From: a virus
Virus genome (UHGV): UHGV-1654121
DNA: 12,530 bases
Strand: one strand, 5' to 3'
Shown: positions 376 through 12,530 of the stretch, piece by piece
How positions within the stretch are numbered: position 1 is the first letter of the stretch
Layout: every line of letters starts with the position of its first letter
Made by a program: the position numbers and the translations under genes
Notes under the pieces: model-generated
The model's database searches: none
Seen by the model: the letters and a program-made list of their open reading frames with translations, nothing else
Told to the model about the DNA's origin: nothing

Positions 376-408
376 CTGTACGAACAGATTAGATGCCTGT
401 TCGTACAG
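376..408 (+). promoter_or_regulatory. Perfect 12-bp inverted repeat (ctgtacgaacag N9 ctgttcgtacag) preceded by a 21-nt polypyrimidine tract; stem-loop or operator candidate
   Basis: Read directly: 376-387 ctgtacgaacag is the exact reverse complement of 397-408 ctgttcgtacag, with a 9-nt loop; 350-370 is C/T only (cacccccctcccatcctctct). No T-run follows, so it is not a canonical intrinsic terminator. Confidence 0.4.
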
Positions 409-461
409 TGATAAATTACGCACATCAGAAAACAAATTGTTTTAACAACAAGGAAATTCTA

Positions 462-2690
462 ATGTCCAAAAAAACCACCAAAGCTGTACTGAAAGAGGTG
501 CAGGATTTTCGCGACTGTGTAAAACGAGTTGTAGCGATGCTTTCAGGTAAACAGATACCTGTTGCAGAACGAGGCAATGAAGCATATGTCCGCTATAACC
601 GGCGCGGCGAACCAGTGCTGGTAAACATCCCATCTATACCGGACGACGCGTCGCCAACCCTCATGAACGTAGTGCGTGGTTTTCTCGACCATGAGGTGGC
701 CCATATTCTCTTTACTGAACCGAAAGTCGCAATGCAGATGCGCGAAAGAGGAAAGGCTCCGTCTACGGGGCTTTGGAATGCGCTGGAAGACGTTTTTATT
801 GAACGCAGAATGGGGCAGGTCTTTAACGGAACCCGGCGTAATTTACTTGCAACACAGAGTCTGGTTATCGACAAATACTTCAGGAATAAAGTACCAGAAG
901 CGGTTTTAGCCTGTCACGGAGACCAGCGTGAATTGTTTTTGAAATTCTTCCTTTGCCCGGTCGTCCGCGCCTGGGATGGACAAAGCCCCTTCATCGATTT
1001 TATGGAAGAACACTGGCGCCTTATCGAGAGGCCGGTAGCCTTACTAAAGGAGCATGGTATAGACGTGGCCGTTCGCAATATGTCGAACACTGAGGATTGC
1101 GTGAAGGTCGCTGCTGCTATAGCCCAAATCATGCAGGATATGAAAGACAAGCCAGAGGGCAAATTACCAGAACTTAAATCATCTGCCAGAAAGCCGTCGG
1201 AGAGCAAAGACGAGTCCGAGGAAACGCCAGAATCAGGTGACGAGCCGTCTCATGGTGACTCTGCATCTAAGCCTGCCAAAGGCGAAGGCGATGACAAGGA
1301 AGAACGAGAAGATGATGCATCAGAAGAGGAAGATTCTGGGGATTCCGATTTGCCTGATTCGTTAGATAAGGACTTACCTACACACGTTAAAGATATTAGT
1401 GATACAGAAAGTAAATATACAGAAGCAGGCCACGAAGAGTCAGGAGACACCCCAGAATCCGATGCTATCGGCATGAAATCAAGTGACTCTGACACCGATG
1501 GTGATGACGGTGAGGACTCCGATACTGATCGTGGGGAAACTGAAGAAGACGTCGAAGGCAAAAAAAATAAAGATGGTGCGGAAGTGCCCAAAGACAGTGA
1601 GTCTGGCTTTGTTCCTGCGCCGGATGAAATGACTCTGGAGGAGGCGCTAAAGGCGCTCGACGAGATGGAAGACGGAATCGGTGAAATGACCGAAGACGCA
1701 CTGTCGGCCACCATCAGCAAAGAGCTTATGAGCGTCTCACCTTCTGATTATCGGCCATACGATCGATCATACGACTTTATCGGGTTGATTGATGGAGCCG
1801 AAGAGCATGTGAAGCGCACCAGAAAGACGTTCGGTGCAATACCAATGCACTCACCAGTCGACCGCTACCGTATGGTGCCAGAAGGCAGAAAACTCTTTGA
1901 ACTGAAAATCGAAAAACATCTGTCTGCAGGCGTTTCTTCGACGCTGGCCAAAGACCTGGAGCGGGCCATCGCCAGCCGCAACCGAGTTCAGTTTATACCT
2001 GGTCAGAGGCGTGGGCGGATACATGGCGCGAGCCTGTATCGTCTGGCAATGAACGACGACCGAGTGTTCCGCAAGAAGGAAGACCATAGAGCGGTGAACG
2101 CGTGTGTCCAGCAGGTCATCGACTTGTCCGGCTCAATGGATGGCGTGAAGATTCAACTGGCCCTAGCCAGTGCCTATACCATTGCGGATGCTTTAGATCG
2201 TATCAATGTCCCCAACATCATCACCGGCTTTACCACGTTCGGTAGCCCAGATTATGAAACCAGGTCGAAGCGCGGGTTTACACGCTTCGAGGCGCTCATG
2301 CTGCCCATTATCAAAAACTGGAATGAGAAAGCAAACTCTCCAGAGATCCGTGCTCGCATGGGATGCGTATGTGAGACGTTCCCCCTGCTCAATAACGTCG
2401 ATGGTGAGAGTGTCGCGCAACTGGCTACCCTGTTTGCAGGGCGAATGGAGGACAAAAAGATCATGCTGGTTATGAGTGATGGGGAGCCATGTGCTACAGG
2501 TAGTGGATTCCATCAGCATTTACGAACCGTCACCAAAGAAATTGAGACCTTGAGCGACATCGAACTGATGGCTATCGGCATTCTGACCGACGAACCACGG
2601 CGTTACTACAAAAATTACGCACTGGTTAACAGTGTTGAAGAGTTAGGGCCGTCAGTCGTCACTGAGTTATCTCGTATCATTCTTGGGTAA
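462..2690 (+). CDS. CobT-like vWA-domain protein (partner of a MoxR/CobS-type AAA+ ATPase), with HExxH motif and long acidic low-complexity segment
   Basis: Start set at ATG 462 (in frame with track ORF 393..2690) because AAGGAA at 450-455 lies 6 nt upstream and the 393 ATG is buried in the 376-408 hairpin. HEVAH encoded at 690-704; D/E/S-rich low-complexity segment about 1150-1700; MIDAS-like DLSGSMDG encoded around 2121-2135 followed by vWA-like sequence (ITGFTTFG...MSDGEP). Confidence 0.75.
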   Translation: MSKKTTKAVLKEVQDFRDCVKRVVAMLSGKQIPVAERGNEAYVRYNRRGEPVLVNIPSIPDDASPTLMNVVRGFLDHEVAHILFTEPKVAMQMRERGKAPSTGLWNALEDVFIERRMGQVFNGTRRNLLATQSLVIDKYFRNKVPEAVLACHGDQRELFLKFFLCPVVRAWDGQSPFIDFMEEHWRLIERPVALLKEHGIDVAVRNMSNTEDCVKVAAAIAQIMQDMKDKPEGKLPELKSSARKPSESKDESEETPESGDEPSHGDSASKPAKGEGDDKEEREDDASEEEDSGDSDLPDSLDKDLPTHVKDISDTESKYTEAGHEESGDTPESDAIGMKSSDSDTDGDDGEDSDTDRGETEEDVEGKKNKDGAEVPKDSESGFVPAPDEMTLEEALKALDEMEDGIGEMTEDALSATISKELMSVSPSDYRPYDRSYDFIGLIDGAEEHVKRTRKTFGAIPMHSPVDRYRMVPEGRKLFELKIEKHLSAGVSSTLAKDLERAIASRNRVQFIPGQRRGRIHGASLYRLAMNDDRVFRKKEDHRAVNACVQQVIDLSGSMDGVKIQLALASAYTIADALDRINVPNIITGFTTFGSPDYETRSKRGFTRFEALMLPIIKNWNEKANSPEIRARMGCVCETFPLLNNVDGESVAQLATLFAGRMEDKKIMLVMSDGEPCATGSGFHQHLRTVTKEIETLSDIELMAIGILTDEPRRYYKNYALVNSVEELGPSVVTELSRIILG

Positions 2691-2785
2691 TAGCTTTACC
2701 CTTAAAAATAAGTAACTACTTACTATACAGCCTAATATATTTCTATAAGATATACCCCACAAACGACAAACAGTAAGGAAAAAAC
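2691..2785 (+). promoter_or_regulatory. AT-rich intergenic region between the vWA and AAA+ genes; possible internal promoter plus RBS
   Basis: 95-nt AT-rich spacer (ttactatacagcctaatatatttctataagatata) ending in AAGGA at 2775-2779, 6 nt before ATG 2786. No exact T4 late-promoter TATAAATA box found. Confidence 0.2.
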
Positions 2786-4021
2786 ATGACCGCTACTGCA
2801 CTACAGCAAGAAGAACATTTGCCGGAAGCCATCGTCTGCAAGTGGTGTGGCAAATCCTTTCATTACCTGAAATCCCATATCTCTATGGGCCGTTGCGAGA
2901 ATATTCCTGAGTCTGCGAAGGGTCTGGACGTGGACGAAGTGGTGAAGATGTACACCTCTGCGTTTCCAGATGAACCAACGATCTCTCGCACGGCACTGGC
3001 CAAACTCAATGAGAAGCGTGCCGAAAAAAATTCATGCGAAGGAAAGGTAGCGGAGATTAGCGCACATCCGGGCTACGCAGGAACGGTCGAATACAAGACC
3101 GAACTGGTGGCCGCGCACGAGCTGCTTGGCGTAACGATCAAAGAGCTGGGAACGCCACGCGGAAAGCCACTACAGGTGACAGTCAACGTCAACACGCCCT
3201 ATCCGGAGTTCGTACCGGAAGCGAAGAAAAACTATGTGTATGGCGACTTCGACCTGATCAAAGACATCTTTATGATGCTGGAAATCGGAATCCCGGGTTA
3301 TCTCTGGGGCCATGCAGGAACCGGTAAATCTTCTCTTCCTACGCAGCTATGTGCCCTGCTAAATCGACCACTGATCCGCGCCCAGCATACGGCATCTATG
3401 GAGGAAGCGCACGTTACAGGCCAGATCCTCGCTCGCGATGGTTCCACCTATTTCGAACCGGGTTTACTAGCGCTGGCGATGAAAAATGGTTGGGTTTACC
3501 TCGCTGATGAATATGACTTCGCGTTCCCGCAGATTCTGGGTGTGTATCAGCCAGTTCTTGAAGGAGAGCCGCTGATCATCAAAGAGGCAACTGCGGACTG
3601 GCGCCGCATCACCCCGCATAAACGCTTTGCCTTCATTGGCACTGGCAACACTAACGGCTCTGGCGACGAAACAGGTCTCTATCAAGGCACAAACATCCAG
3701 AACGCAGCGAACTTCTCGCGTTTTGGCATTGTTTCAAACGTGAAGTACATGAGTACGAAGGCAGAAGTCAACATGCTGGCTGAAGCAGGCGTCATCCGCG
3801 AATACGCCGAGAAGATGGTGAAGTTCGCGAATCTTATCCGTGAAGGTTATGAAAAGCATCAGATTAGCCAGCCAATCGGGCCTCGTGAGCTGCTGCTGTC
3901 CGCCAAAATCGGAATGATGCGCGGTGATTTCTCTGCCGGCATCGAAAAGTCGTTTATCAATAAACTTCCATCCACGTCTGCACAGGCAGCGCGTGAAGTG
4001 GTTCAGAAGATCTTTGGTTAA
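2786..4021 (+). CDS. CobS-like / MoxR-family AAA+ ATPase
   Basis: Walker A GHAGTGKS encoded at 3308-3331; downstream ...WVYLADEYDFAFPQ... consistent with a Walker B region; strong RBS; immediately downstream of the vWA partner, the usual pairing for MoxR/CobS-vWA systems. N-terminus carries a Cys/His cluster (CKWCGKSFHYLKSHISMGRC). Confidence 0.8.
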   Translation: MTATALQQEEHLPEAIVCKWCGKSFHYLKSHISMGRCENIPESAKGLDVDEVVKMYTSAFPDEPTISRTALAKLNEKRAEKNSCEGKVAEISAHPGYAGTVEYKTELVAAHELLGVTIKELGTPRGKPLQVTVNVNTPYPEFVPEAKKNYVYGDFDLIKDIFMMLEIGIPGYLWGHAGTGKSSLPTQLCALLNRPLIRAQHTASMEEAHVTGQILARDGSTYFEPGLLALAMKNGWVYLADEYDFAFPQILGVYQPVLEGEPLIIKEATADWRRITPHKRFAFIGTGNTNGSGDETGLYQGTNIQNAANFSRFGIVSNVKYMSTKAEVNMLAEAGVIREYAEKMVKFANLIREGYEKHQISQPIGPRELLLSAKIGMMRGDFSAGIEKSFINKLPSTSAQAAREVVQKIFG

Positions 4022-4023
4022 TC

Positions 4024-4227
4024 GTGCGTAAAGGATGTTTCGGCTCTCTTATCGCAGCGTCTGAAACTGGCAGTGCTTGTTTGGCATGTCCGGATAGCCC
4101 CGAGTGCCACCAGTCAGCCAAAGAGGTTGCGATTTCGATGTATGGGAAGTTCGTTGGCTTCCCCAATGACAAAATCAAGAAAACCAGAAAGGTAAAAGCA
4201 CATGAAGGCTCTGATGGTCAGAACTGA
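4024..4227 (+). CDS. Possible small Cys-rich protein (67 aa, GTG start); doubtful
   Basis: ORF begins with GTG 2 nt after the upstream stop and overlaps the polymerase start by 26 nt; contains CLACPDSPEC (CxxC...C). No convincing RBS for the GTG; internal ATG at 4138 has AAGAGG 11 nt upstream. Could equally be non-coding leader. Confidence 0.2.
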   Translation: MRKGCFGSLIAASETGSACLACPDSPECHQSAKEVAISMYGKFVGFPNDKIKKTRKVKAHEGSDGQN

Positions 4228-7200
4228 CTTCTCCCTGGGAGAGTCAGCTCTAAAAGCAGAAAACGCGATGAAAATCGCGAGAGACGCTGGCTACACCGCT
4301 GTCATTTCCGCTGACAGCATGAACATTGCCAGTGTGATCCCCCTGCAGCGTGCCGCTGGCGACGACATGGCGGTTATTTGTGGTGTTAAGCTGAATGTGG
4401 TCGACGATCCGACATACGAGCACCGCGCTCGCTTGGCGAAAGAGTCAGGAAGATGTATGGAATCATTAGTTCGTGATCGCAGCTACTGCTTCACGGCACT
4501 GATAAAGAATGAACAAGGTTATCGCGACGTGTGCGAACTGATGACCTTAGCGAACAAGCGCGAGCAATTCTACTTTGTCCCGCGTCTGGCGCTTGAGCAG
4601 CTGGCAGCCGCATATGCCAAAGGCAACATCATCCTGCTGACGTCCGACATTGGCAGTGTATTCCAGCGCCGGGACTTCGCAAAAATTATCGGGACGCTGG
4701 TCACAGCTGGCGGTCGCGATAACTTCTACAGCGTGGTTTATCCGCACCCTACCCCATTCTACGACCAGATTAACGTCCGGGCGATGAAAGTGGCGAGCGC
4801 ACTGAAAATAGAGCCAGTGGCGTTCTATCCCGCTTATTACGAAGCGATCGACGACGCTGACATTAAAGACATTGCGCACATGGTTACGAACAACATCAAA
4901 ATCGACCAGCCGCATCGTCTGCGCATCCCCCACCAGCGAGATAACGCTGTTAATGGTCGTCGCCATCTCCTTGAAGCGCTGAAAGCCTTCTCCGTTCGCA
5001 TGGGCGTACCGGTAACAGCTGCAATGGCCTCAACAACGCAGGACACCATTATTGAAGCCTGCACATGGCGCTGGCATGAACTGCCACCAGCACTGCCCAA
5101 GATGGCAGACGACGAGCCTGCAACGCTGATGAAGCTGGCTGTCGCGGGGCTACGCAAGCGTCTAACTACTAAAGAGTTTGGCTACACACCACCGGCTTCT
5201 GAGCACCGAGTGTATGTTGAGCGACTGAAGTACGAAATGGACACACTGACCCGTCTGGGCTTCTGTGGCTACTTCCTGATGGTACGCGATCTGATGAATC
5301 ACAGCCGTGAAACTGGCATTCCTGTCGGGCCAGGTCGTGGTTCCTCTGCCGGTTCTCTGGTGGCGTGGTGCATAGGCATAACCAACGTCGATCCTATCCG
5401 TCACGGTCTTCTGTTTGAGCGTTTCATCAACCCTGAACGTCTTGACTTACCGGATGCGGATCTGGACTTCAGCCAGGCACGTCGTCATGAGGTGATCGAG
5501 TATCTGAATGAACGCTATGGCGAAGATTACGTTGCCGGTATTCCAAACTTCACCTATCTGGGCGCCGCTTCTGCGCTGCGAGACACTGCGCGTATTTACG
5601 GTGTCGACGCTGCGGATATGGCGGTATCCAAAGAGTTCAAGAATCTGGAAGACGATAGCCTGTCTCTGGAAGAGCTGCGCGAGCAACTGGCCAGCCTGGA
5701 CAAATACGCCACGAAAAACCCGGAAGCGTTCAAAGCGGCGTGTAAGCTACAAAGCCTGATGCGTGGTTTTGGCCGTCATGCAGCGGGGATGATCGTCGCT
5801 GGCGTTCCACTGGTAGAGCGCACGCCCGTCGAGCTGCGTGGCAACGCTCGCTGTATTGCATTCGATAAACGTTACTGCGAGGCAATGGGGCTGATTAAGC
5901 TGGACGTTCTCGGTCTGGCAACGCTCGATCTGCTGGATAGCGCGAAACGCTACATCAAAGAGAGTACCGGGGAAGACATCAATCTCGATGCTATCCCACT
6001 GGACGATCGCAAAGTTCTGGATGGGTTCGCTGCAGGGTACACTCAGGGCGTATTCCAGCTGGAGTCCGGCCCCATGCGCAAGCTGCTTAAAGATCTGGGC
6101 GGTGGCATTGAGCCAATGAGCTTCAAAACCGTTGTCGCCACGACCGCACTCTTCCGACCTGGCCCGATTCAATCAGGCATGTTGGACGACTATGTCTCCG
6201 TGGCCAAAGGCTTCATGGCTCCACAGTCGCTGCACCCGGTACTGGACGAGCTTACCGCGGAAACCAACGGCGTGATTCTGTATCAGGAACAGACGATGAA
6301 CGCGACACGATTGCTGGCCGGCTTCACGATGGCCGAAGCAGATGGTGTGCGTAAAGCGATCGGTAAAAAGGATATGGAAAAGATGAAGAGCATGGGCGAG
6401 AAGTTCGTCGTTCAGGCTCAAGCTGGTTGGATCGACGTTGAGATGGAAGACGGCACAACGCAGCGTATTCACCGCGCGGAACACTTCAAATGTGAGGACG
6501 GCGCACTGCGGACGGTCGAAGAAGCGCTGGAGGCAGGTGTAAAATTGCCTATGGCTGCTGTACGCGTTACAGGGTCACAACCGGGCTTGTCTGAGACGAA
6601 AGCTAAGGAGATCTGGGATGCCTTCGAGAAGAACGGTGCGTATCAGTTCAACAAATCACACTCCGTTGCTTACTCGCTGATCAGCTATCAGTCTATGTGG
6701 TTAAAGACACATTACCCTGCTGAGTTCTTCGCTGCTGCGCTCACCATTCTGGGCGAGGATAAGCACCAGGGCTTAGTTAAAGATGCGCTGACCTATGGCA
6801 TTCGCGTATTGCCACCAGACGTTAACGTTTCATCTAACCGAATTGAGATCCGCACGCTGGAAGACGGCAGTCAGGTTCTGTATGCACCATTCTCTGCTGT
6901 GAAAGGCTGCTCTGAGAATGGTTGCCAGGCCATCATGAGAGCGCGTGAGAAAGTTGGCGGCAAATTCGAATCACTGGCGCAATTTGAGGAATCTGTCGAG
7001 AAGCGAGCATGTAACAGCCGGGTACGCGAGTCGCTGCAAAAAGTCGGTGCGTTCGCATCGATTGAGCCTGGCTGTCTGCCAGCGACAGATCCGGAACGGC
7101 TGCGCGACCAGGCAGAGTTGATGGGTAATCTGGTGATCGACGCTGTAAAAGCCTCTCGACCGTTCGAGATGAACCCTAAGCGCTCTGCTGAAGTAAATGT

Positions 7201-7720
7201 ACTGATGACGCGCATGGCGGCCGAAATGGGGCTGGGAGACAATCTAATCCGTCCAAGCATTGGTATTAAGCCAAAAATCATGGTTATTCTGGACAACGCG
7301 AACGGCAATGATGGGCGTACCGGCTACTTCATGGAGAACGGCTACGACGACTTTAAGGCGAAGTTGCTTACTGCCGGCGATCTGCGTATGGGCGATCTCT
7401 ACGTCACCGGCGTGTGCAAAAAGGTGAAGGACAAAGAGAAGGACTACACCAAAGACGAGATCGGTCAGTTCACCGACTTTATGCGTGAAGAGATCAATCT
7501 GGTGCGTCCGACCTATGTACTGACGTGTGGCAGCCGGGCGACGTCGCTCTTCAACAACAAGAGCAAACCATCCGACCTGGTTGGACGCAAAGAGTATCTG
7601 CCGGAGCTGGATGCGACCGTTTTCTACGGATTTAACCCGAATATCCTTTACTTCCGACCGGAAGAAGGAGAGCGACTGGAGGCCATTCTGACTGATATTG
7701 CGGAGACGATAAATAAGTAA
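4202..7720 (+). CDS. DnaE-type DNA polymerase (Pol III alpha-like catalytic subunit) with degenerate N-terminal PHP domain and atypical C-terminal domain
   Basis: Family-C polymerase signature blocks present: GPGRGSSAGSLVAWCIGIT..DP....LLFERFINPER, catalytic PDADLDF (Asp codons at 5453, 5459, 5465), AFDKRY, LYQEQTM, FNKSHSVAYSLISYQ..WLKTHYPAEF, then an HhH-like region. N-terminus (MVRTDFSLGES...AVISADS) lacks the His-x-His and TDH metal ligands of active PHP domains. The last roughly 150 aa (about 7259-7717) do not resemble the OB-fold/tau-binding tail. Confidence 0.9.
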   Translation: MKALMVRTDFSLGESALKAENAMKIARDAGYTAVISADSMNIASVIPLQRAAGDDMAVICGVKLNVVDDPTYEHRARLAKESGRCMESLVRDRSYCFTALIKNEQGYRDVCELMTLANKREQFYFVPRLALEQLAAAYAKGNIILLTSDIGSVFQRRDFAKIIGTLVTAGGRDNFYSVVYPHPTPFYDQINVRAMKVASALKIEPVAFYPAYYEAIDDADIKDIAHMVTNNIKIDQPHRLRIPHQRDNAVNGRRHLLEALKAFSVRMGVPVTAAMASTTQDTIIEACTWRWHELPPALPKMADDEPATLMKLAVAGLRKRLTTKEFGYTPPASEHRVYVERLKYEMDTLTRLGFCGYFLMVRDLMNHSRETGIPVGPGRGSSAGSLVAWCIGITNVDPIRHGLLFERFINPERLDLPDADLDFSQARRHEVIEYLNERYGEDYVAGIPNFTYLGAASALRDTARIYGVDAADMAVSKEFKNLEDDSLSLEELREQLASLDKYATKNPEAFKAACKLQSLMRGFGRHAAGMIVAGVPLVERTPVELRGNARCIAFDKRYCEAMGLIKLDVLGLATLDLLDSAKRYIKESTGEDINLDAIPLDDRKVLDGFAAGYTQGVFQLESGPMRKLLKDLGGGIEPMSFKTVVATTALFRPGPIQSGMLDDYVSVAKGFMAPQSLHPVLDELTAETNGVILYQEQTMNATRLLAGFTMAEADGVRKAIGKKDMEKMKSMGEKFVVQAQAGWIDVEMEDGTTQRIHRAEHFKCEDGALRTVEEALEAGVKLPMAAVRVTGSQPGLSETKAKEIWDAFEKNGAYQFNKSHSVAYSLISYQSMWLKTHYPAEFFAAALTILGEDKHQGLVKDALTYGIRVLPPDVNVSSNRIEIRTLEDGSQVLYAPFSAVKGCSENGCQAIMRAREKVGGKFESLAQFEESVEKRACNSRVRESLQKVGAFASIEPGCLPATDPERLRDQAELMGNLVIDAVKASRPFEMNPKRSAEVNVLMTRMAAEMGLGDNLIRPSIGIKPKIMVILDNANGNDGRTGYFMENGYDDFKAKLLTAGDLRMGDLYVTGVCKKVKDKEKDYTKDEIGQFTDFMREEINLVRPTYVLTCGSRATSLFNNKSKPSDLVGRKEYLPELDATVFYGFNPNILYFRPEEGERLEAILTDIAETINK

Positions 7721-7725
7721 TAAAG

Positions 7726-7750
7726 AAAAACCCGCCAAATGGCGGGTTTT
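7726..7750. terminator. Bidirectional rho-independent terminator between convergent genes
   Basis: aaaaa-CCCGCC-aaat-GGCGGG-tttt: 6-bp GC stem (7731-7736 / 7741-7746), 4-nt loop, A-tract upstream and T-tract downstream, placed 6 nt after the polymerase stop and overlapping the last codons of the convergent - strand gene. Confidence 0.7.
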
Positions 7751-8309
7751 ATGCGCAAATTTTTTCGCAGTCTTGCGAGTGACTGAGTGAGCGAGTAACT
7801 CTCTCCACCTCATGAATGTCGCCCAACGATCTTATACGCAGGGCAAGATTCCACGTACTCAATGTGCGCGCGTTACGCACCAGTTCTTCCCGTGCTTTTT
7901 CGTCTTTGCTGTCAAGACGACCGCAGTCGTTCAACCATTTAGCGACTTCCGCCCAGTCCCAGAGTGGAGACTGACCGCTGATACGCTGAACAGGGCAAGG
8001 AAAATCACCTTTGCCACGTAATCCGTCTTTAAGCAGAGTAATAGCCTGGCGCGTTAAGCCAGAGAGTTGAGCAATATCGCTCAAGCCTACCAGTGCTGAA
8101 TCTACCGATTCCACCACTGCGCCAATGCCTGCTGTTTCAATATCAAGGATTGCCGATTCGATTGCTTCATCTAAAGATTTAGCTTCTCGGTCAAATTCTA
8201 CATACACTGAGTTTCCGTAGTAGCAAATGAGCGCATCATCGCAACCGTGGCTATACAGAGCATCTGCGACTACACAGTACTGACTACAGGTTATCAGAAT
8301 TATCCCCAT
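7749..8309 (-). CDS. DNA-binding protein with C-terminal excisionase/AlpA-type HTH; N-terminal domain weakly HicB-like
   Basis: Only - strand gene in the window. C-terminal half LSDIAQLSGLTRQAITLLKDGLRGKGDFPCPVQRISGQSPLWDWAEVAKWL fits the HTH followed by a conserved W..EV..WL pattern seen in AlpA/excisionase-like HTH domains. N-terminal half (YSHGCDDAL...DREAKSLDEAIESAILDIE) loosely resembles the HicB-type antitoxin fold. No obvious SD upstream of the ATG at 8309. Confidence 0.55.
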   Translation of the reverse strand: MGIILITCSQYCVVADALYSHGCDDALICYYGNSVYVEFDREAKSLDEAIESAILDIETAGIGAVVESVDSALVGLSDIAQLSGLTRQAITLLKDGLRGKGDFPCPVQRISGQSPLWDWAEVAKWLNDCGRLDSKDEKAREELVRNARTLSTWNLALRIRSLGDIHEVERVTRSLSHSQDCEKICA

Positions 8310-8376: not shown

Positions 8377-8850
8377 ATGATAAAATTGATATACGAAAAT
8401 AAGTATATAGATAACATTATGAGCACCGATATCTACGAAAAAATCATGTCCGATCTGGAGTTCGACCGCGACAATCTGGAGGAAGTCTGGCGTCAGCAAC
8501 CGCGCCTGTTGATGGAGTATGGCTCTAAGCTGGCGCGGGCAGAACGTGAGGTTGCAGATGCAAAACTCTCTCTCGACGCGATCGAGGCAAAAATCTATGA
8601 CAACGAGCGTAAGAGCTTGAGTATGAATGGAATTAAATTTAATGAATCCGTACTGGAAGCGAAGGTTAGAACCAACCCGCAATACCTCGCAAAGCGCCAG
8701 AAACTCGACGATGCTCGACACATTGCAGACCTGTACAAGCACGCTGTAGCCGCCTTCTCCCACCGCCGCGATATGATTGTCCAGGCGTCGAAGATGGCTA
8801 TCGTAGAGATAGAGCGTCTGGGGGCCGAACGATTCCATTTACCCCGTTAA
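8377..8850 (+). CDS. Coiled-coil protein, possibly a UvsY-like recombination mediator
   Basis: Charged, helix-rich 157-aa ORF co-oriented with the downstream SSB; length and coiled-coil character resemble UvsY, but no signature motif is confidently matched. Start uncertain (ATG 8377 or ATG 8419; neither has a clear SD). Preferred over the overlapping - strand ORF 8329..8838, which has antisense-like L/R/C/F-rich composition. Confidence 0.5.
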   Translation: MIKLIYENKYIDNIMSTDIYEKIMSDLEFDRDNLEEVWRQQPRLLMEYGSKLARAEREVADAKLSLDAIEAKIYDNERKSLSMNGIKFNESVLEAKVRTNPQYLAKRQKLDDARHIADLYKHAVAAFSHRRDMIVQASKMAIVEIERLGAERFHLPR

Positions 8851-8969
8851 TTTATGCTAGATAGTAAGTAAGTACTGATCTATCATTCTTCTCGCTCGAA
8901 AGAGCCACGAACAAACGAACGCCCAATGCGCATAGCGCCAATGGCCACAATCACAACAAGGAGAAATAC

Positions 8970-9986
8970 ATGTCTAAGTCATTACTTGATCTGCTTAACA
9001 AGACCCGTGGCGATATTGCTTCCAAACGTGGCAATAACATTGATTTGACCCGTCTGAAAGATGGCAATAACTATCTGCGCATTTTTCCGAACAAGGACGA
9101 TCCGAATGGCGTGTTCTTCCAGACTTTCGGTATGCACTACGTTAAGCATCAGAATGAGGAAGGCAAAGATGTAACCACCGCCTATATCTGCGAACAACAC
9201 ACCCACGGCCACGCTTGCCAGCTGTGTGAGATGGTTATGGAAGGTCGCGCTCGCTTTAAGGGCAACAAAGCGATGGAAGAGCGCATTAATAGTATGCGTG
9301 CTACGCCGCGTTATCTGGTCAACGGTGTTCTGTCTGCGCGTGAAGACTTTGCGGACGCAGAGAAATGCCAGCTGATTGAGCTGCCGTCTACGGTCTTCGA
9401 CGATATCTGCAAAGTGATGTCCGAAGATATTGCGGACGATATTGGCAACCCACTGAGCAAAGAAGAAGGCTATGCGTTCCTGATTAAACGCACCGGTTCC
9501 GGTCGTGACACCAAGTACGACGTATCCCCGAAACGTAAAGTCTACAAAGGCGACATTCCTGAGAAGCTCTGGACTACCCAACACGATCTGATCGCATATG
9601 CGAACCAGGCTGACGAAACTCGTTTGCTGTCCACGGCTCGCACTATGGGTCGTCTGATTGGTATTGCGGCTCCGGCAGCAACTATGTCCTCACCAGCCAT
9701 TTCTTCCGCTGCAAAATCAGCCGCAGCTGGACTGCCAGGCTTTGGCTCTATCACTGGTCATACGGAAGGCGCAGCTGCTGTCGCTACAGCACATACTCCG
9801 GCGCCAGAGTCCACCAGCCTGGTTGATGAAGAGATCCTGCGTGCCGCTGAAGCTGAGTTCAAACCGGAAGAAGCGAAAGCTCCGGAAGCCACCGAAGCCG
9901 CAAGTGCTTCAGCATCTGCTGCCGCTGCATCTGTACCAGCTGATGAAGGTCTCGATAACCTGCTGGCTGAACTGGACGCTCTGTAA
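8970..9986 (+). CDS. T4 gp32-like single-stranded DNA-binding protein
   Basis: AAGGAG at 8958-8963 with a 6-nt spacer. N-terminal block LRIFPNKDDPNGVFF and His/Cys cluster H60...C74-x8-C83-x2-C86 (encoded about 9147-9227) parallel the gp32 Zn-binding subdomain (H-x12-C-x9-C-x2-C in T4). Ala/Ser-rich linker and acidic C-terminal tail (...DEGLDNLLAELDAL) are typical of SSB partner-interaction tails. Confidence 0.8.
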   Translation: MSKSLLDLLNKTRGDIASKRGNNIDLTRLKDGNNYLRIFPNKDDPNGVFFQTFGMHYVKHQNEEGKDVTTAYICEQHTHGHACQLCEMVMEGRARFKGNKAMEERINSMRATPRYLVNGVLSAREDFADAEKCQLIELPSTVFDDICKVMSEDIADDIGNPLSKEEGYAFLIKRTGSGRDTKYDVSPKRKVYKGDIPEKLWTTQHDLIAYANQADETRLLSTARTMGRLIGIAAPAATMSSPAISSAAKSAAAGLPGFGSITGHTEGAAAVATAHTPAPESTSLVDEEILRAAEAEFKPEEAKAPEATEAASASASAAAASVPADEGLDNLLAELDAL

Positions 9987-10002
9987 TCCCATAACGTGAC
10001 CA

Positions 10003-10031
10003 GTAAGGCGTCTGCGGACGCCTTACTTTTT
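10003..10031 (+). terminator. Rho-independent terminator downstream of the SSB gene
   Basis: gtaaggcgtc-tgcg-gacgccttac followed by ttttt: 10-bp stem (10003-10012 / 10017-10026), 4-nt loop, T-run 10027-10031; located 17 nt after the SSB stop codon. Confidence 0.75.
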
Positions 10032-10046
10032 GGAAGGAGTGTACCG

Positions 10047-10991
10047 GTGAATTATCTCTTTGTGGACGGTAACAGCCTGGGCTATTACCACCAGCAATCC
10101 GACAAATTACACAACGGCGAGATGGAAGTTCAGGCGGCTTTTGGCTTCGTGAAGAACGTTCGTCGTTACGCCTCAATTCTCCATGCCCGGCCAATGATCT
10201 TGTGGGATGGATTCAGCGACAAACGTCGCGACTTCTACCCGGAGTACAAAGCGAACCGCGACGACGACCCGGACATGAAGAAGATGAAAGAAGGCTTTGC
10301 CATCCAGAAGCCGTACATCTTGAAAATGATGACCGCGCTGGGCGTTAACCAACTCATTGCAAAGGACGCAGAAGCGGATGACCTGGCTGGAATGCTGGTC
10401 TCTCGTCTGGCTCCGCAGCCGACTGTTGACCATATCTATCTGCTAACGGGCGATGGCGACTGGCTCCAGCTTGTTCGTGAGAACGTGAGCTGGATAAGCC
10501 TGCGTGAAGACGCCAAGCACAAGCAGGTGAACTTCGAACAGTTCGCAGAGCTGACCGGTCTGCCGACCCCACGCGCGTTTCTGGAAGCGAAAGCGTTGCA
10601 GGGCGATAACTCGGACAACATCAAAGGCGTAGGTGGCATTGGTGATGGTGGCGCGAAAGAGCTGCTTCATGAATGGGGAAGCGTGGCCGCAATGGTACGC
10701 GGCATTAACGACGGTTCCATTGTCATCAACAAAGGTCGCTATAAGACGGCATTCAACAAGCTGGCAAAGAACGCCTTCAACGAGAAGACGGGCTGCCGGA
10801 TGCTCGAAGCCTTTAAGCGCAACATGATGCTGATGAACCTTATCGACACAAAATTCCCACCCAGCGAAATCGAGTCGATTAAAGGCGCACGCGATATGAG
10901 CGCCTTTGAACAGATGTGTTACGAGCTGAATTTCCGTTCGTTTCTGGAAGATCTGGAAGTGTTTGTTCTGCCGTTTGAGAGGTATTGCTGA
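10047..10991 (+). CDS. 5'-3' exonuclease / flap endonuclease (FEN, T4 RNase H / Pol I 5'-exo family)
   Basis: Conserved FEN blocks: (M)NYLFVDGNSLGYY, ILWDGFSDKRRDFYPEYKANRDD, EADDLAGML, LLTGDGDWLQLV, H3TH-like GDNSDNIKGVGGIG. Start placed at GTG 10047 (GGAAGGAG at 10032-10039, 7-nt spacer) rather than track start 9996, because the intervening sequence is the 10003-10031 terminator. Confidence 0.85.
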   Translation: MNYLFVDGNSLGYYHQQSDKLHNGEMEVQAAFGFVKNVRRYASILHARPMILWDGFSDKRRDFYPEYKANRDDDPDMKKMKEGFAIQKPYILKMMTALGVNQLIAKDAEADDLAGMLVSRLAPQPTVDHIYLLTGDGDWLQLVRENVSWISLREDAKHKQVNFEQFAELTGLPTPRAFLEAKALQGDNSDNIKGVGGIGDGGAKELLHEWGSVAAMVRGINDGSIVINKGRYKTAFNKLAKNAFNEKTGCRMLEAFKRNMMLMNLIDTKFPPSEIESIKGARDMSAFEQMCYELNFRSFLEDLEVFVLPFERYC

Positions 10992-11257
10992 TGCTGAAAT
11001 CCATCATTAATGGCGGGGCAACTACGCCAACCATGCTGGCAAAGGAGATTGTTTTCTGCCACGGCGAGCACGCTGTGGTAGCGCTGCCGAACATTCTGGG
11101 CGCTGCTGGCATTTCTGCTACTGAGCGTGAGTTCGCGCTGGTCAGTGAGCAGGTCGTGAAGATCATCGCTCGCGTCGCCAAACACCTGAACCACGACGCA
11201 ATCAAGTTTGACGAAGCCGCTGCTTCGAAGCGAATCAACGAATCAAAAGGAGCCTAA
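10991..11257 (+). CDS. Small hypothetical protein (88 aa from the ATG)
   Basis: ATG at 10991 overlaps the FEN stop codon (TGATG, 1-nt overlap), suggesting translational coupling; ends 2 nt before the recombinase RBS/start. Track lists it from TTG 10985. No recognisable motif. Confidence 0.45.
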   Translation: MLKSIINGGATTPTMLAKEIVFCHGEHAVVALPNILGAAGISATEREFALVSEQVVKIIARVAKHLNHDAIKFDEAAASKRINESKGA

Positions 11258-11259
11258 TC

Positions 11260-12530
11260 ATGGCAAAAGGCAAATCCGCACTGGCACTGGCGCTGAAAAA
11301 GAAAATCGGCAGCAATGACGAGATTCAGAAGGTCTCCCACTGGATTGACTCCGGTTTCCCTCCACTGAACAAAGCCATTTCCGGACGTTACGACGGTGGT
11401 TTTCCGTGTGGGCGTATCGTTGAAGTCTTCGGGCCACCAAGCGCGGGGAAATGTGTTACCGCAGACACCATGCTGCTGACGGAGCGTGGAATGGTAACAG
11501 TGAAAGAACTGTTTGAGATTGAGGGGCACAAAGCAACATGCACTACTCGCGATGTAGAGCATAACGTTGGACTCATCAATGAAAATGGCGTGATAGAGAA
11601 GACCTCACACCTGACATGGAACAACCGTCGCAAATTCAAGCGCATTAAGCTGGCATCAGGGGGTTACATCGAGGCTACGTTCCGTCACCCAATTCGTGTG
11701 GTTGACGACTTAGGCAATATCGTCTGGCGGTATGCTGAAAAAATCAGTGTAGGCGACACGATTCCTTCAATGGTTGGCACACATCAATTCGGCGATCAGC
11801 ACTTGGATGCCAATATCGCAAAACTGATGGGCTATTTAATTGCTGACGGATACGTGGCCTCTGAAAATTCTGTGCATTTTTCTAACACAGCTCCATTCAT
11901 CAAGGATGAGTACTACCGCCTCATTTCGCTGGTATCAGACAAGATGCCAGTTACGAGAAAACATAACGGCTCGGAAGACCATGTGCTGTTTAGCAAAGAG
12001 GTGCGTTCGCTGCTTTTTAAAGAATATGGTCTGGAGTATGAGAAAGCTGCTTGCAAGCAGGTTCAGTTGAGTGTGCGTCGCGCCAATAGCGAGGCTCAAA
12101 TTGCATTCCTTCGCGGCTACTTTGAGCTGGAATGCCACGTCAATGATGGTCGCTGCATTGAGGTTGTGAGCGCGAGTGGGCTGCTGCTACAGCAAATTCG
12201 CCTCATGCTCCTGAATCTGGGGATTGCGTCAACTATCTCTGAAAAACACGTCGCAGGTTATAAAAACATATATTACCGGCTGTCATTCAGTGGCTCTAAC
12301 TACGACCTTTTCCTGTCAACGATTGGGTTCGAGTCTCCGGCTCGTTTAGCAGTGGCAACCAAACGGGACATTAGTTTTGACCGCACTTATTTAGGCTACG
12401 TTCCGCACATCAGCGGCTTAGTGAAATCACTCTACGAGTCACTCACCAAGACCTCTCGTAAAGACTACGTTCTGGTAGATCACGTTCTTGGCCGCGGCGA
12501 TCGTGTCGGAATAGACAAACTGCGAGAAAT
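11260..12530 (+). CDS. RecA-like recombinase, N-extein plus intein-interrupted P-loop (partial; continues beyond window)
   Basis: AAGGAG at 11247-11252, ATG 11260. N-extein ...GFPCGRIVEVFGPPSAGK closely parallels bacterial RecA GRIVEIYGPESSGKT; the reading frame stays open to the window end. After GK the sequence switches to intein blocks (see mobile_element). Confidence 0.85.
   Translation, partial: MAKGKSALALALKKKIGSNDEIQKVSHWIDSGFPPLNKAISGRYDGGFPCGRIVEVFGPPSAGKCVTADTMLLTERGMVTVKELFEIEGHKATCTTRDVEHNVGLINENGVIEKTSHLTWNNRRKFKRIKLASGGYIEATFRHPIRVVDDLGNIVWRYAEKISVGDTIPSMVGTHQFGDQHLDANIAKLMGYLIADGYVASENSVHFSNTAPFIKDEYYRLISLVSDKMPVTRKHNGSEDHVLFSKEVRSLLFKEYGLEYEKAACKQVQLSVRRANSEAQIAFLRGYFELECHVNDGRCIEVVSASGLLLQQIRLMLLNLGIASTISEKHVAGYKNIYYRLSFSGSNYDLFLSTIGFESPARLAVATKRDISFDRTYLGYVPHISGLVKSLYESLTKTSRKDYVLVDHVLGRGDRVGIDKLRE
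11452..12530 (+). mobile_element. Intein with LAGLIDADG homing-endonuclease domain inserted in the Walker A (P-loop) of the recombinase (partial; C-terminal splice junction outside window)
   Basis: Intein block A starts at Cys codon TGT 11452-11454 (CVTADTMLLTERGMVTVKEL); block B-like GGYIEATFRHPIRV (T..H); LAGLIDADG motif 1 KLMGYLIADGYV (about 11824-11856); motif 2 AFLRGYFELECHV (about 12103-12135). Insertion directly after GPPSAGK implies the missing Thr of GKT is the +1 C-extein nucleophile. Confidence 0.8.

Follow-up and report, generated by a model that had tools for sequence, protein, structure and literature searches.

What is encoded by the open reading frame that runs off the 3′ end of this stretch of 12,530 nucleotides (the window, meaning the whole stretch of DNA that was analysed), and what separates its ATP-binding motif from the remainder of the protein? 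The initial annotation proposed that an intein with a LAGLIDADG homing endonuclease splits the P-loop of a RecA-like recombinase. According to the analyses described here, the frame very probably encodes an SSU5-type RecA-family precursor in which a recently mobile class-1 LAGLIDADG intein is located between Lys64 and Thr487 of the Walker A motif; protein splicing and DNA cleavage are predicted activities of this element.

The source of the window is an SSU5-type phage-plasmid of Enterobacteriaceae. The closest relatives are IncFIB plasmids of E. coli and E. fergusonii, which are 99.2–99.5% identical across all 12.5 kb, and the top hits among plasmids and E. coli genomes had 99.5–99.7% identity, none of them reaching 100%. 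Upstream of the recombinase frame lies a block of recombination genes (Table 1). A promoter and terminator scan of positions 10800–12530 gave nothing above shuffled expectation. Small open reading frames were seen in other frames, three on the minus strand within 11254–11645, one on the minus strand at 11935–12138, and one on the plus strand at 11840–12070; they were set aside as incidental, given the long conserved frame on the plus strand.

Table 1. Positions of the recombination genes, the recombinase frame, and the intein motifs in the window. Residue numbers refer to the intein or to the unspliced precursor as indicated.
Feature	Position	Strand	Remarks
Upstream recombination genes, whole block (PHROGs; annotation of phage Cyrano and related plasmids)	8377–11257	+	
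UvsY-like mediator	8377–8850	+	
gp32-like SSB	8970–9986	+	Pfam gp32, E = 9e-72
5′-3′ exonuclease	9996–10991	+	Pfam 5_3_exonuc_N
Small conserved ORF	10991–11257	+	
RecA-family recombinase ORF	11260–12528	+	Translation; open up to the window end
N-extein, residues 1–64, ending in the Walker A fragment GPPSAGK	11260–11451	+	Translation; PF00154 and phrog_97
GPPSAGK, residues 58–64	11431–11451	+	
Intein, residues 1–359 of 422	11452–12530	+	Cut by the window end; blocks F, G and the +1 Thr lie beyond
Splicing block A, CVTADTMLLTERG	11452–11490	+	Cys1 (precursor Cys65, codon TGT 11452–11454), first nucleophile
Splicing block B, GGYIEATFRHPIRV	11659–11700	+	T76-x-x-H79 of the intein (precursor T140-F-R-H143)
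First LAGLIDADG motif, KLMGYLIADGYV	11821–11856	+	LMGYLIADG; acidic residue Asp132 of the intein (precursor D196)
Endonuclease block D	12046–12075	+	AACKQVQLSV in the window, AAGKQVPLSV (K-x-V-P motif) in all other copies
Second LAGLIDADG motif, AFLRGYFELECHV	12103–12141	+	LRGYFELEC; acidic residue Glu227 of the intein (precursor E291)

Profile searches against Pfam and PHROGs assigned residues 2–71 of the frame to PF00154 RecA and to phrog_97, 'UvsX-like recombinase', while phrog_9666 matched residues 1–423 (E = 1e-296). The DNA of the N-extein is 97.6% identical to the uninterrupted gene of phage SSU5, and the megablast match stops exactly at position 11451 of the window. The host protein contains the RecA ATPase core (Walker A, Walker B, and L1/L2 region), of which the window itself holds only the part within residues 1–64, and RecA structures of the PDB matched the host protein at E ~1e-27 with the Walker A and Walker B regions aligned. 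PF00154 scored 146.9 bits on the spliced-equivalent SSU5 protein (cut-off 27) and 126.9 bits on the full precursor, there in two pieces on either side of the intein. The bacterial RecA equivalog TIGR02012 reached 135–155 bits against a cut-off of 325, which places the protein outside this equivalog. It likewise falls outside NF007072, the model for intein-containing RecA of the M. tuberculosis type, because its whole-protein score of 95.9–98 bits is far under the cut-off of 1024. The host protein is a divergent phage-type RecA (phrog_97) rather than the cellular one, and its intein belongs to a type other than that of M. tuberculosis. The recombinase gene is accessory and RecA-like, belongs to a phage-plasmid, and stays under the RecA equivalog cut-off of NCBI (135 versus 325 bits); the attribute 'essential' given to it by the initial annotation is a presumption.

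The motifs that had been noted from the letters alone, i.e., GPPSAGK followed by the block A Cys, T-x-x-H, and two LAGLIDADG motifs, are all present in the window, and the corresponding profiles scored above their curated cut-offs. On the N-terminal side of the intein, the block A Cys nucleophile and the block B T-x-x-H were found, and TIGR01445 intein_Nterm scored 36.2 bits on the window's own sequence (cut-off 24.5). Cys1 is invariant in all 39 copies compared and in the wider family alignment A1, in which LIADG of the first LAGLIDADG motif is aligned with MIADG, LVADG, LTADG, and LIADG of the members P0004–P0007. PF14528 LAGLIDADG_3 matched residues 279–356 of the window's own sequence with 64.1 bits (cut-off 22.5; E = 1.4e-17). 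The block D Pro is invariant among the family members retaining that region. When the 359 intein residues were modelled (pLDDT 78), a Hint-type splicing domain was seen, and the best structural match was TliVMA (7qsu; E = 2.8e-14), followed by PI-PfuI, PI-SceI, and PI-PkoII; for the nuclease part, I-DmoI was matched along with the corresponding domains of PI-PfuI, PI-SceI, and TliVMA. The two helices with an acidic residue at position 8 of each motif and the alpha-beta-beta-alpha-beta-beta-alpha core expected of a LAGLIDADG endonuclease were present. Thus, both the profile match and the structural matches bear out the endonuclease domain proposed earlier.

The window ends before the last 63 intein residues, the C-terminal junction, and the entire C-extein; these were read in near-identical relatives and are assumed for the window's replicon. 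For this purpose, 39 copies from phages, plasmids, and viral contigs with 96.8–100% identity of the intein DNA were compared. All of them end in ...SNGIISHN/TFLATAAM (C-terminal stretch PTFDVAMPETHSFWSNGIISHN/T; here and below the slash marks the junction or insertion point). Homologs with 99.6% identity over the shared part run on to ...FDVAMPETHSFWSNGIISHN/TFLATAAM and then into a complete RecA core. Extension in the downstream direction had been set beforehand as the step that could overturn the intein reading, and in these near-identical relatives it yielded both the C-terminal splicing block and the continuation of RecA. The same junctions were found in 39/39 copies, and the stretch read is free of stop codons in 38/39, the copy L025 having one stop inside it. 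Of the intein profiles, Intein_splicing (44.6 bits, cut-off 35.8) and TIGR01443 intein_Cterm (17.8 bits, cut-off 15.6) also passed, both on a full-length homolog of 779 amino acids and not on the window. Full-length intein-plus homologs comprise 779–780 amino acids (e.g., WP_023135727.1), compared to 357–358 amino acids for intein-less genes. Intein-less alleles of SSU5, Y. pestis pMT, K. pneumoniae, and E. coli read GPPSAGK/TFLATAAM, and intein-plus alleles carry exactly 1266 additional nucleotides (422 codons), in-frame and bounded by Cys and His-Asn/Thr. The uninterrupted motif of these relatives therefore shows that the insertion is exact and lies between Lys and Thr of Walker A, a position described as a 'classic' intein insertion point (PMC5050341), as had been stated in the initial annotation. 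As read from these sequences, with the C-terminal residues taken from the relatives, the element has every canonical class-1 splicing residue.

From these canonical residues the following course of splicing can be proposed. A precursor of ~779 amino acids would be translated as a single chain, and the intein Cys1, helped by Thr and His of block B, would undergo an N-S acyl shift. The resulting thioester would be attacked by the +1 Thr (precursor Thr487), and cyclisation of the terminal Asn, which is preceded by His, would release the intein. Ligation of the exteins would restore GPPSAGKT in a recombinase of 357–358 amino acids with the predicted junction peptide ...GPPSAGKTFLATAAM.... Since the P-loop is physically split until splicing, neither binding nor hydrolysis of ATP is expected of the precursor. 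The recombinase would thus be active only after splicing, as suggested by the position of the intein and by the precedent of archaeal RadA: according to PMC8529194, which cites Topilina 2015, and PMC5790916, the P-loop intein of P. horikoshii RadA compromises ATPase activity before splicing. In a cell with both an intein-plus and an intein-minus phage-plasmid, the two-motif LAGLIDADG endonuclease would most likely cut the uninterrupted allele at GGT-AAA/ACC, whereupon repair would transfer the intein, along with a few bases from its flanks, to the empty allele (homing); both the endonuclease activity and this target site are predicted from the sequence.

The P-loop site between Lys and Thr/Ser has been described as common for inteins (PMC5050341, PMC4760082), and the K/T site has precedents in the RecA/RadA family, as it is known from RadA (PMC5790916) and was found here in other bacterial and phage RecA genes. 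The P-loop inteins of P. horikoshii and Thermococcus sibericus RadA resemble the SSU5-type intein by host and site, namely a RecA/RadA/Rad51-family protein with a split P-loop. They are mini-inteins without endonuclease from hyperthermophilic archaea with temperature-conditional splicing, whereas the SSU5-type RecA intein has 422 amino acids and a LAGLIDADG domain, is carried by a mesophilic enterobacterial phage-plasmid, and bears signs that it is still mobile. A search for homologous proteins with the intein as query gave at least 18 clusters. Among these, the RecA P-loop inteins P0004–P0018 share 28–45% intein identity with the SSU5-type intein, the same insertion point (...SGK/C...HN/T...), and the same block order, but the RecA genes in which they reside have only a distant relationship to the SSU5-type recombinase. 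P0011 is a chromosomal-type RecA of a metagenome-assembled genome (550-kb contig), and P0009 is located on a 102-kb phage-like contig. Unlike in the SSU5-type intein, the endonuclease domain is lost or degraded in P0011, P0015, P0017, and P0018.

The RecA inteins of M. tuberculosis (PI-MtuI) and M. leprae are also class-1 inteins with a LAGLIDADG-type endonuclease region in a RecA host, and NF007072 matches partly. Their site is a different one, as had been claimed: the extein aligns to positions 55–253 of NF007072, with the intein of that model beginning after ~position 253 of RecA, while the SSU5-type intein is found in the P-loop near position 70. The P-loop inteins of the archaeal RFC small subunit, aIF2, and the mycobacteriophage terminase (TerL1-a) occupy the same site, between the invariant Lys and the Thr/Ser of Walker A. 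Their hosts are unrelated (AAA+ clamp loader, GTPase, and terminase), and the similarity is limited to the intein/endonuclease blocks and a short P-loop string. In NCBIfam, the window's intein gave its best partial matches with the models for intein-containing RFC-S and IF-2, the alignments beginning 8–12 residues before the junction.

The distribution of the intein was analysed by comparison of intein-plus and intein-minus alleles. The 1266 nt of the intein show 100.0% identity in a comparison of an E. coli plasmid with K. pneumoniae p4727/BA4656, whereas the exteins are 83.8% identical, and in the same gene pairs dS is 0.08–0.09 for the intein versus 1.0–1.2 for the exteins. Each of three extein lineages has intein-plus as well as intein-minus members, with 96.9–98.5% extein identity between them. 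All intein-plus alleles share GCG GGG AAA/.../ACA TTC CTN, and the intein-minus alleles mostly read GCY GGT AAA/ACC TTY YTG; a few synonymous bases in the flanks travel with the intein, and the flanks are mosaic. In the endonuclease region, dN/dS is ~0.2, which indicates purifying selection. Altogether, the intein looks recently mobile, with a very recent horizontal spread shown by these comparisons. For homing, such population patterns are indirect evidence. In principle, the identity of the intein across lineages could reflect ordinary homologous recombination between co-resident phage-plasmids in place of endonuclease-driven homing, a process that does occur according to the mosaic flanks. 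In PLSDB, 768 records were matched by SSU5-type recA alleles. With a query of 1631 nt, 608 plasmid records were matched, ~239 of which cover most of the query and are therefore counted as holding the intein; about two thirds of the related plasmids are without it. Among 5426 complete E. coli genomes, 114 (~2%) carry the intein, in every case on a plasmid.

In the window's own copy, four substitutions in the endonuclease part (D211A, G265C, P269Q, and I410L; positions 11891, 12052, 12065, and 12487) are private, i.e., absent from the 39 other copies. Each of them is nonsynonymous (Fisher p = 0.018 versus the rest of the window), and each is a transversion, in contrast to the transition-rich pattern elsewhere (p = 0.008); two belong to the G>T / C>A type. 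A search of genome contigs and viral contigs for an exact 41-mer covering the private changes at 12052 and 12065 gave no hit. These changes raise the question whether the window's copy is a decaying intein that retained splicing, while recent mutations inactivated its endonuclease and ended its mobility in this replicon. Besides the excess of nonsynonymous changes, such decay is suggested by the loss of P269, the invariant Pro of the block D K-x-V-P motif, and by the change of D211, which is conserved as D/N in the wider family. On the other hand, neither the acidic residues of the two LAGLIDADG motifs nor the block D Lys is affected, the changes are all transversions, and their location near the sequence end would fit a base-calling or assembly error as well. 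We therefore consider decay unlikely, although the endonuclease of the window's copy may be impaired, or the private bases may be sequencing errors.

As a parallel to the conditional splicing suggested for RadA of P. horikoshii and RecA of M. tuberculosis, the SSU5-type intein might have been co-opted as a post-translational switch, in which redox state, temperature, or ssDNA controls splicing and keeps the recombinase off until needed. Its P-loop position is the same as that of the conditionally splicing RadA intein (PMC5790916), the nucleophile is a Cys with further Cys residues nearby in the intein and the N-extein, and the intein is kept intact in the copies examined, as seen from the conserved junctions and the stop-free stretch in all but one of them. 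Against this stands that about two thirds of the related plasmids manage without the intein, that no sequence feature specifically points to regulation, and that the very recent horizontal spread together with the conserved endonuclease fits a selfish element. A regulatory role is accordingly rather improbable. We regard with the same scepticism a broader scenario, in which the intein is sweeping through SSU5-supergroup phage-plasmids of E. coli, Klebsiella, Enterobacter, and Citrobacter by homing and ties the recombinase to conditional splicing, e.g., via a redox-sensitive Cys1. If it were true, phage-plasmid recombination would be tied to stress in the host or to the lysogenic-to-lytic switch, and a native, genetically tractable intein-homing system would be available in E. 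coli.

A free-standing or intron-encoded LAGLIDADG endonuclease gene that merely adjoins recA fragments, as might be suspected from the RefSeq product name 'LAGLIDADG family homing endonuclease' of the nearest plasmids (PGAP, most copies), was rejected as hardly conceivable: a single continuous in-frame ORF begins at the start codon of RecA, spans the endonuclease, and continues into the RecA core without internal stop and without need or case for an internal start, the N- and C-terminal splicing profiles are above their cut-offs and the model has a Hint-type domain, the insertion of 1266 nt has exact borders (Cys and His-Asn/Thr), and other RefSeq copies are labelled 'intein-containing recombinase RecA'.

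The preferred reading, a LAGLIDADG intein in the P-loop of the recombinase, describes an element that is canonical and textbook in kind. LAGLIDADG inteins at the K/T position of P-loops are well documented, including RecA/RadA, and the class is not new. A literature search in the contexts of SSU5, phage-plasmids, and RecA/UvsX retrieved no paper on the SSU5-type RecA intein. In a 2021 review on inteins in human pathogens, Klebsiella, Enterobacter, Salmonella, and Yersinia are absent, and E. coli appears in the reference list only (PMC8529194). With the intein and closely related empty alleles at hand, and with an identical intein in host genes of 84% identity, these phage-plasmids offer a convenient natural system in standard laboratory hosts, which could serve to study intein invasion, co-conversion, and cost. 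While some RefSeq copies already bear a name that includes the intein, most public copies, the nearest relatives among them, are named 'LAGLIDADG family homing endonuclease' or 'hypothetical protein', and this misnaming hides the recombinase gene of the SSU5 phage-plasmid group.

Translation of the frame starting at 11260 gave 423 residues up to 12528 with no stop codon. The first 64 residues, the N-extein, finish in ...RIVEVFGPPSAGK, and residue 65 (codon TGT, 11452) opens the intein with CVTADTMLLTERG. The initial annotation had described a Walker A motif GPPSAGK running directly into the intein Cys, followed by a T-x-x-H and two LAGLIDADG motifs, all of which were recovered. In the window sequence, the intein N-terminal splicing region model TIGR01445 scored 36.2 bits (curated cut-off 24.5) and LAGLIDADG_3 (PF14528) 64.1 bits (cut-off 22.5; E = 1.4e-17), while the N-terminal 64-71 residues of the ORF matched RecA (PF00154) and phrog_97, 'UvsX-like recombinase'. 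An AlphaFold model was built on the 359 intein residues within the window (mean pLDDT 78), and its best PDB matches were endonuclease-bearing inteins, with TliVMA (7qsu, E = 2.8e-14) on top, followed by PI-PfuI (1dq3), PI-SceI (1vde) and PI-PkoII (2cw7); I-DmoI matched the nuclease domain only. By profile scores and structure-model matches, the likeness to LAGLIDADG inteins is no chance resemblance.

The C-terminal half lies outside the window and was inferred from relatives. Over the 1271 nt of the gene shared with the window, E. coli plasmid p.CT29-P1 shows 5 differences and E. coli plasmid a7 'unnamed1' shows 4. In both, the gene runs on to 779 aa across the junction ...NLFYDEVVAIEEGEAPTFDVAMPETHSFWSNGIISHN/TFLATAAMVSAQKQDG... 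and into a complete RecA core, so that the C-terminal splice block and the RecA continuation, whose presence downstream had been proposed as a check, were both found in these relatives. The full-length homolog scored 44.6 bits with Pfam Intein_splicing (cut-off 35.8), 17.8 bits with TIGR01443 intein_Cterm (cut-off 15.6) and 126.9 bits with RecA PF00154, the latter in two pieces flanking the insert, and solved RecA structures aligned with the C-extein, Walker B and L2 regions included, at an E-value of about 1e-27. The allele of Salmonella phage SSU5 is uninterrupted (358-aa gene, GPPSAGK/TFLATAAM), as are those of Y. pestis pMT and of plasmids of K. pneumoniae, K. grimontii and E. coli (357-358 aa), and the DNA similarity between SSU5 and the window breaks off exactly at 11451. 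Intein-plus junctions read against these intein-less alleles and the end of the SSU5 match place in Walker A, between Lys and Thr, an insert of exactly 422 codons, from Cys1 to His-Asn and followed by Thr. All four class-1 intein nucleophile and assisting positions are present, the C-terminal ones as read in relatives. Thus, the proposed identity as an intein in a RecA P-loop was upheld.

Splicing is proposed to follow established intein chemistry. Cys65 (precursor numbering; Cys1 of the intein), helped by T140/H143 of block B, would undergo an N-S acyl shift, Thr487 would attack the thioester, Asn486 would cyclise with the help of His485, and ligation of the exteins would restore GPPSAGKT. 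The unspliced precursor should be incapable of ATP binding and hydrolysis, because the P-loop Lys and Thr are 422 residues apart. Compromised ATPase function prior to splicing has been reported for the P-loop intein of P. horikoshii RadA (PMC5790916; PMC8529194, which cites Topilina et al. 2015). The freed intein is predicted to cut the empty, intein-less allele.

Most of the 12.5-kb window is matched at 99.2-99.5% identity by E. coli and E. fergusonii plasmids of IncFIB type, which MOB-suite classes as non-mobilizable, and the recA region shares 91-94% identity with the SSU5 relatives Klebsiella phage vB_KpnS_p4727 and Escherichia phages PhiR41_1 and Cyrano. These identities assign the window, by sequence, to an SSU5-type phage-plasmid. 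A T4-style recombination module comprising the UvsY-like protein, the gp32-like SSB, the exonuclease and the 88-aa ORF occupies 8377-11257, upstream of the RecA-like gene. The CobT-like VWA protein, called 'porphyrin biosynthesis protein' in public records, has a long acidic low-complexity linker and adjoins the AAA_5 (CobS/MoxR-like) ATPase (393-4021) in a replication region of the phage-plasmid; at ~1541 the window lacks one 3-nt unit present in its three nearest plasmids. The phage-plasmid also encodes a DnaE-type Pol III alpha subunit of 1172 aa with PHP, NTPase, finger and HHH domains. Bacterial DnaE/PolIII alpha is a common intein host; this copy is intein-free.

Features of the window, motifs of the intein and private substitutions within it
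Feature	Position	Strand	Details
CobT-like VWA protein	393-2690	+	
AAA_5 ATPase	2786-4021	+	
DnaE-type Pol III alpha	4202-7720	+	
DNA-binding protein	7749-8309	-	
UvsY-like protein	8377-8850	+	so named only in phage Cyrano; without Pfam match
gp32-like SSB	8970-9986	+	PF08804, E = 9e-72
5'-3' exonuclease	9996-10991	+	
Small conserved ORF	about 10991-11257	+	88 aa, phrog_2207
RecA-like/intein ORF	11260 onwards	+	open to window end
Block B, T-x-x-H	11659-11700	+	GGYIEATFRHPIRV
LAGLIDADG 1	11821-11856	+	LMGYLIADG
LAGLIDADG 2	12103-12141	+	LRGYFELEC
Private substitution D211A	11891		A>C
Private substitution G265C	12052		G>T
Private substitution P269Q	12065		C>A
Private substitution I410L	12487		A>C

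The host protein is a RecA-family (PF00154) member well under the bacterial RecA equivalog cut-off and, because it is located in the T4-like UvsY/gp32/exonuclease module, it is a phage recombinase; the earlier designation as 'essential' is unsupported. The insertion near position 70 of the M. tuberculosis-type precursor model NF007072 is unlike that of the M. tuberculosis RecA intein, which starts at position 253, where the extein alignment ends, in agreement with the claim of a site distinct from the mycobacterial one. The point between Lys and the nucleophilic Thr is the 'classic' P-loop insertion, common in bacterial, archaeal and phage ATPases (PMC5050341) and documented for DnaB, MCM and RFC (PMC4760082), and it is shared with mini-inteins of archaeal RadA (PMC5790916). 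RecA inteins have been counted as 56, in Actinobacteria, Cyanobacteria and Proteobacteria (PMC4760082). An intein-only homology search returned relatives, 28-45% identical, that occupy the corresponding point (…SGK/C…HN/T…) of further RecA genes. One of these genes encodes a chromosomal-type RecA of a metagenome-assembled genome (550-kb contig), and another lies on a phage-like contig of 102 kb; the endonuclease domain is degraded in several of the inteins. Hence the P-loop site is not new for the RecA/RadA family.

For analysis of mobility, 11 intein-plus and 4 intein-minus alleles were compared, followed by 28 further intein-plus copies from IMG/VR. An E. coli plasmid (L007) shares its 1266-nt intein at 100.0% identity with phage p4727 and plasmid BA4656, both of K. 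pneumoniae, with 83.8% identity in the surrounding recA exteins. Synonymous divergence in cross-lineage pairs is 0.08-0.09 in the intein versus 1.0-1.2 in the exteins, which makes the intein, on these sequences, less than one tenth as old as the divergence of the host genes. Each of three extein lineages has intein-plus and intein-minus members, with extein identities of 98.5% (p4727 versus the UCLAOXA232 plasmid), 98.3% (PhiR41_1 versus pIso00225_02) and 96.9% (E. hormaechei plasmid versus SSU5; intein-plus named first). The insert is flanked in every intein-plus allele by GCG GGG AAA at the 5' and ACA TTC CTN at the 3' side, while intein-minus alleles mostly read GCY GGT AAA/ACC TTY YTG. The sole exception is the intein-minus E. 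coli pIso00225_02 (L014, 1501-2574; junction at ~nt 192 of the gene), which combines the intein-plus type 5' flank GCG GGG AAA with the intein-minus type 3' flank ACC TTT TTG; it may stand for the intein's ancestral lineage, or may have lost the intein precisely, with conversion of part of the flanks. The flank pattern appears as expected of short co-conversion tracts. In certain copies the two flanks are of differing lineages, e.g. L030 with identities of 85.9% (N-extein), 98.9% (intein) and 99.9% (C-extein). The endonuclease-region dN/dS of ~0.2 between two intein subtypes (about 97% identical) argues for selection on the endonuclease. G+C content is 47.9% in the intein versus about 54% in the exteins. 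Together, the comparisons are evidence that the intein is, or very recently was, mobile, and its spread among phage-plasmids matches the theoretical prediction for a homing intein; the vehicle could be ordinary recombination between co-resident phage-plasmids. In one IMG/VR copy (L033, IMGVR_UViG_3300028993_000030, 2501-3760) the intein is 6 nt shorter than in the other 38, with an open ORF and unchanged junction residues.

The SSU5-type recA gene matched 768 PLSDB records. With a 1631-nt query, about 239 of the 608 plasmid records matched hold the intein, coverage of at least 80% of the query being the basis for counting a record as intein-plus. Searching 5426 complete E. coli genomes yielded 122 matches in 121 genomes, every one on a plasmid, and the intein itself in 114 genomes, always plasmid-borne; there were no chromosomal matches among the 5426, and the chromosomal recA P-loop there is free of this intein.

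Compared with its three nearest plasmids, the window carries 29 private differences, four of them in the intein, within its endonuclease part, and these four occur in 0/39 other intein copies. All four are nonsynonymous (private changes elsewhere: 4 nonsynonymous, 11 synonymous; Fisher p = 0.018), and all are transversions (elsewhere: 5 transversions, 17 transitions; p = 0.008). Two of the affected sites are conserved throughout the wider family of inteins, P269 being the block D Pro (K-x-V-P motif) that never varies there and D211 a position held by D or N. The acidic residues of the two LAGLIDADG motifs (D196, E291), the block D Lys and the splicing residues within the window are untouched. 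The substitutions may be base-calling errors close to the contig end, or may mark incipient decay of an endonuclease just freed of constraint in this replicon.

In summary of the initial annotation, the observation was confirmed and its interpretation supported, with corrections on essentiality, site novelty and the source of the C-terminal half. The element is a canonical, already annotated intein, and both its kind and its identification are known. Its recent spread among enterobacterial phage-plasmids appears not yet described. In the literature collection searched, no paper mentioned the SSU5-type RecA intein, and Klebsiella, Enterobacter, Salmonella and Yersinia are absent from a 2021 review of inteins of human pathogens (PMC8529194). 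The value lies chiefly in annotation correction and in a natural homing system that lends itself to study in E. coli and Klebsiella. RefSeq names some copies 'intein-containing recombinase RecA' (e.g. WP_022649903.1), the 779-aa product of phage Cyrano is annotated as RecA, and 'recombinase RecA' also occurs. Most copies, including the nearest relatives of the window, are named 'LAGLIDADG family homing endonuclease' or 'hypothetical protein', and this inconsistent naming conceals the recombinase. The former name is given by PGAP to the whole 779-aa RecA precursor in the gene copies L005, L007-L009, L011 and L012.
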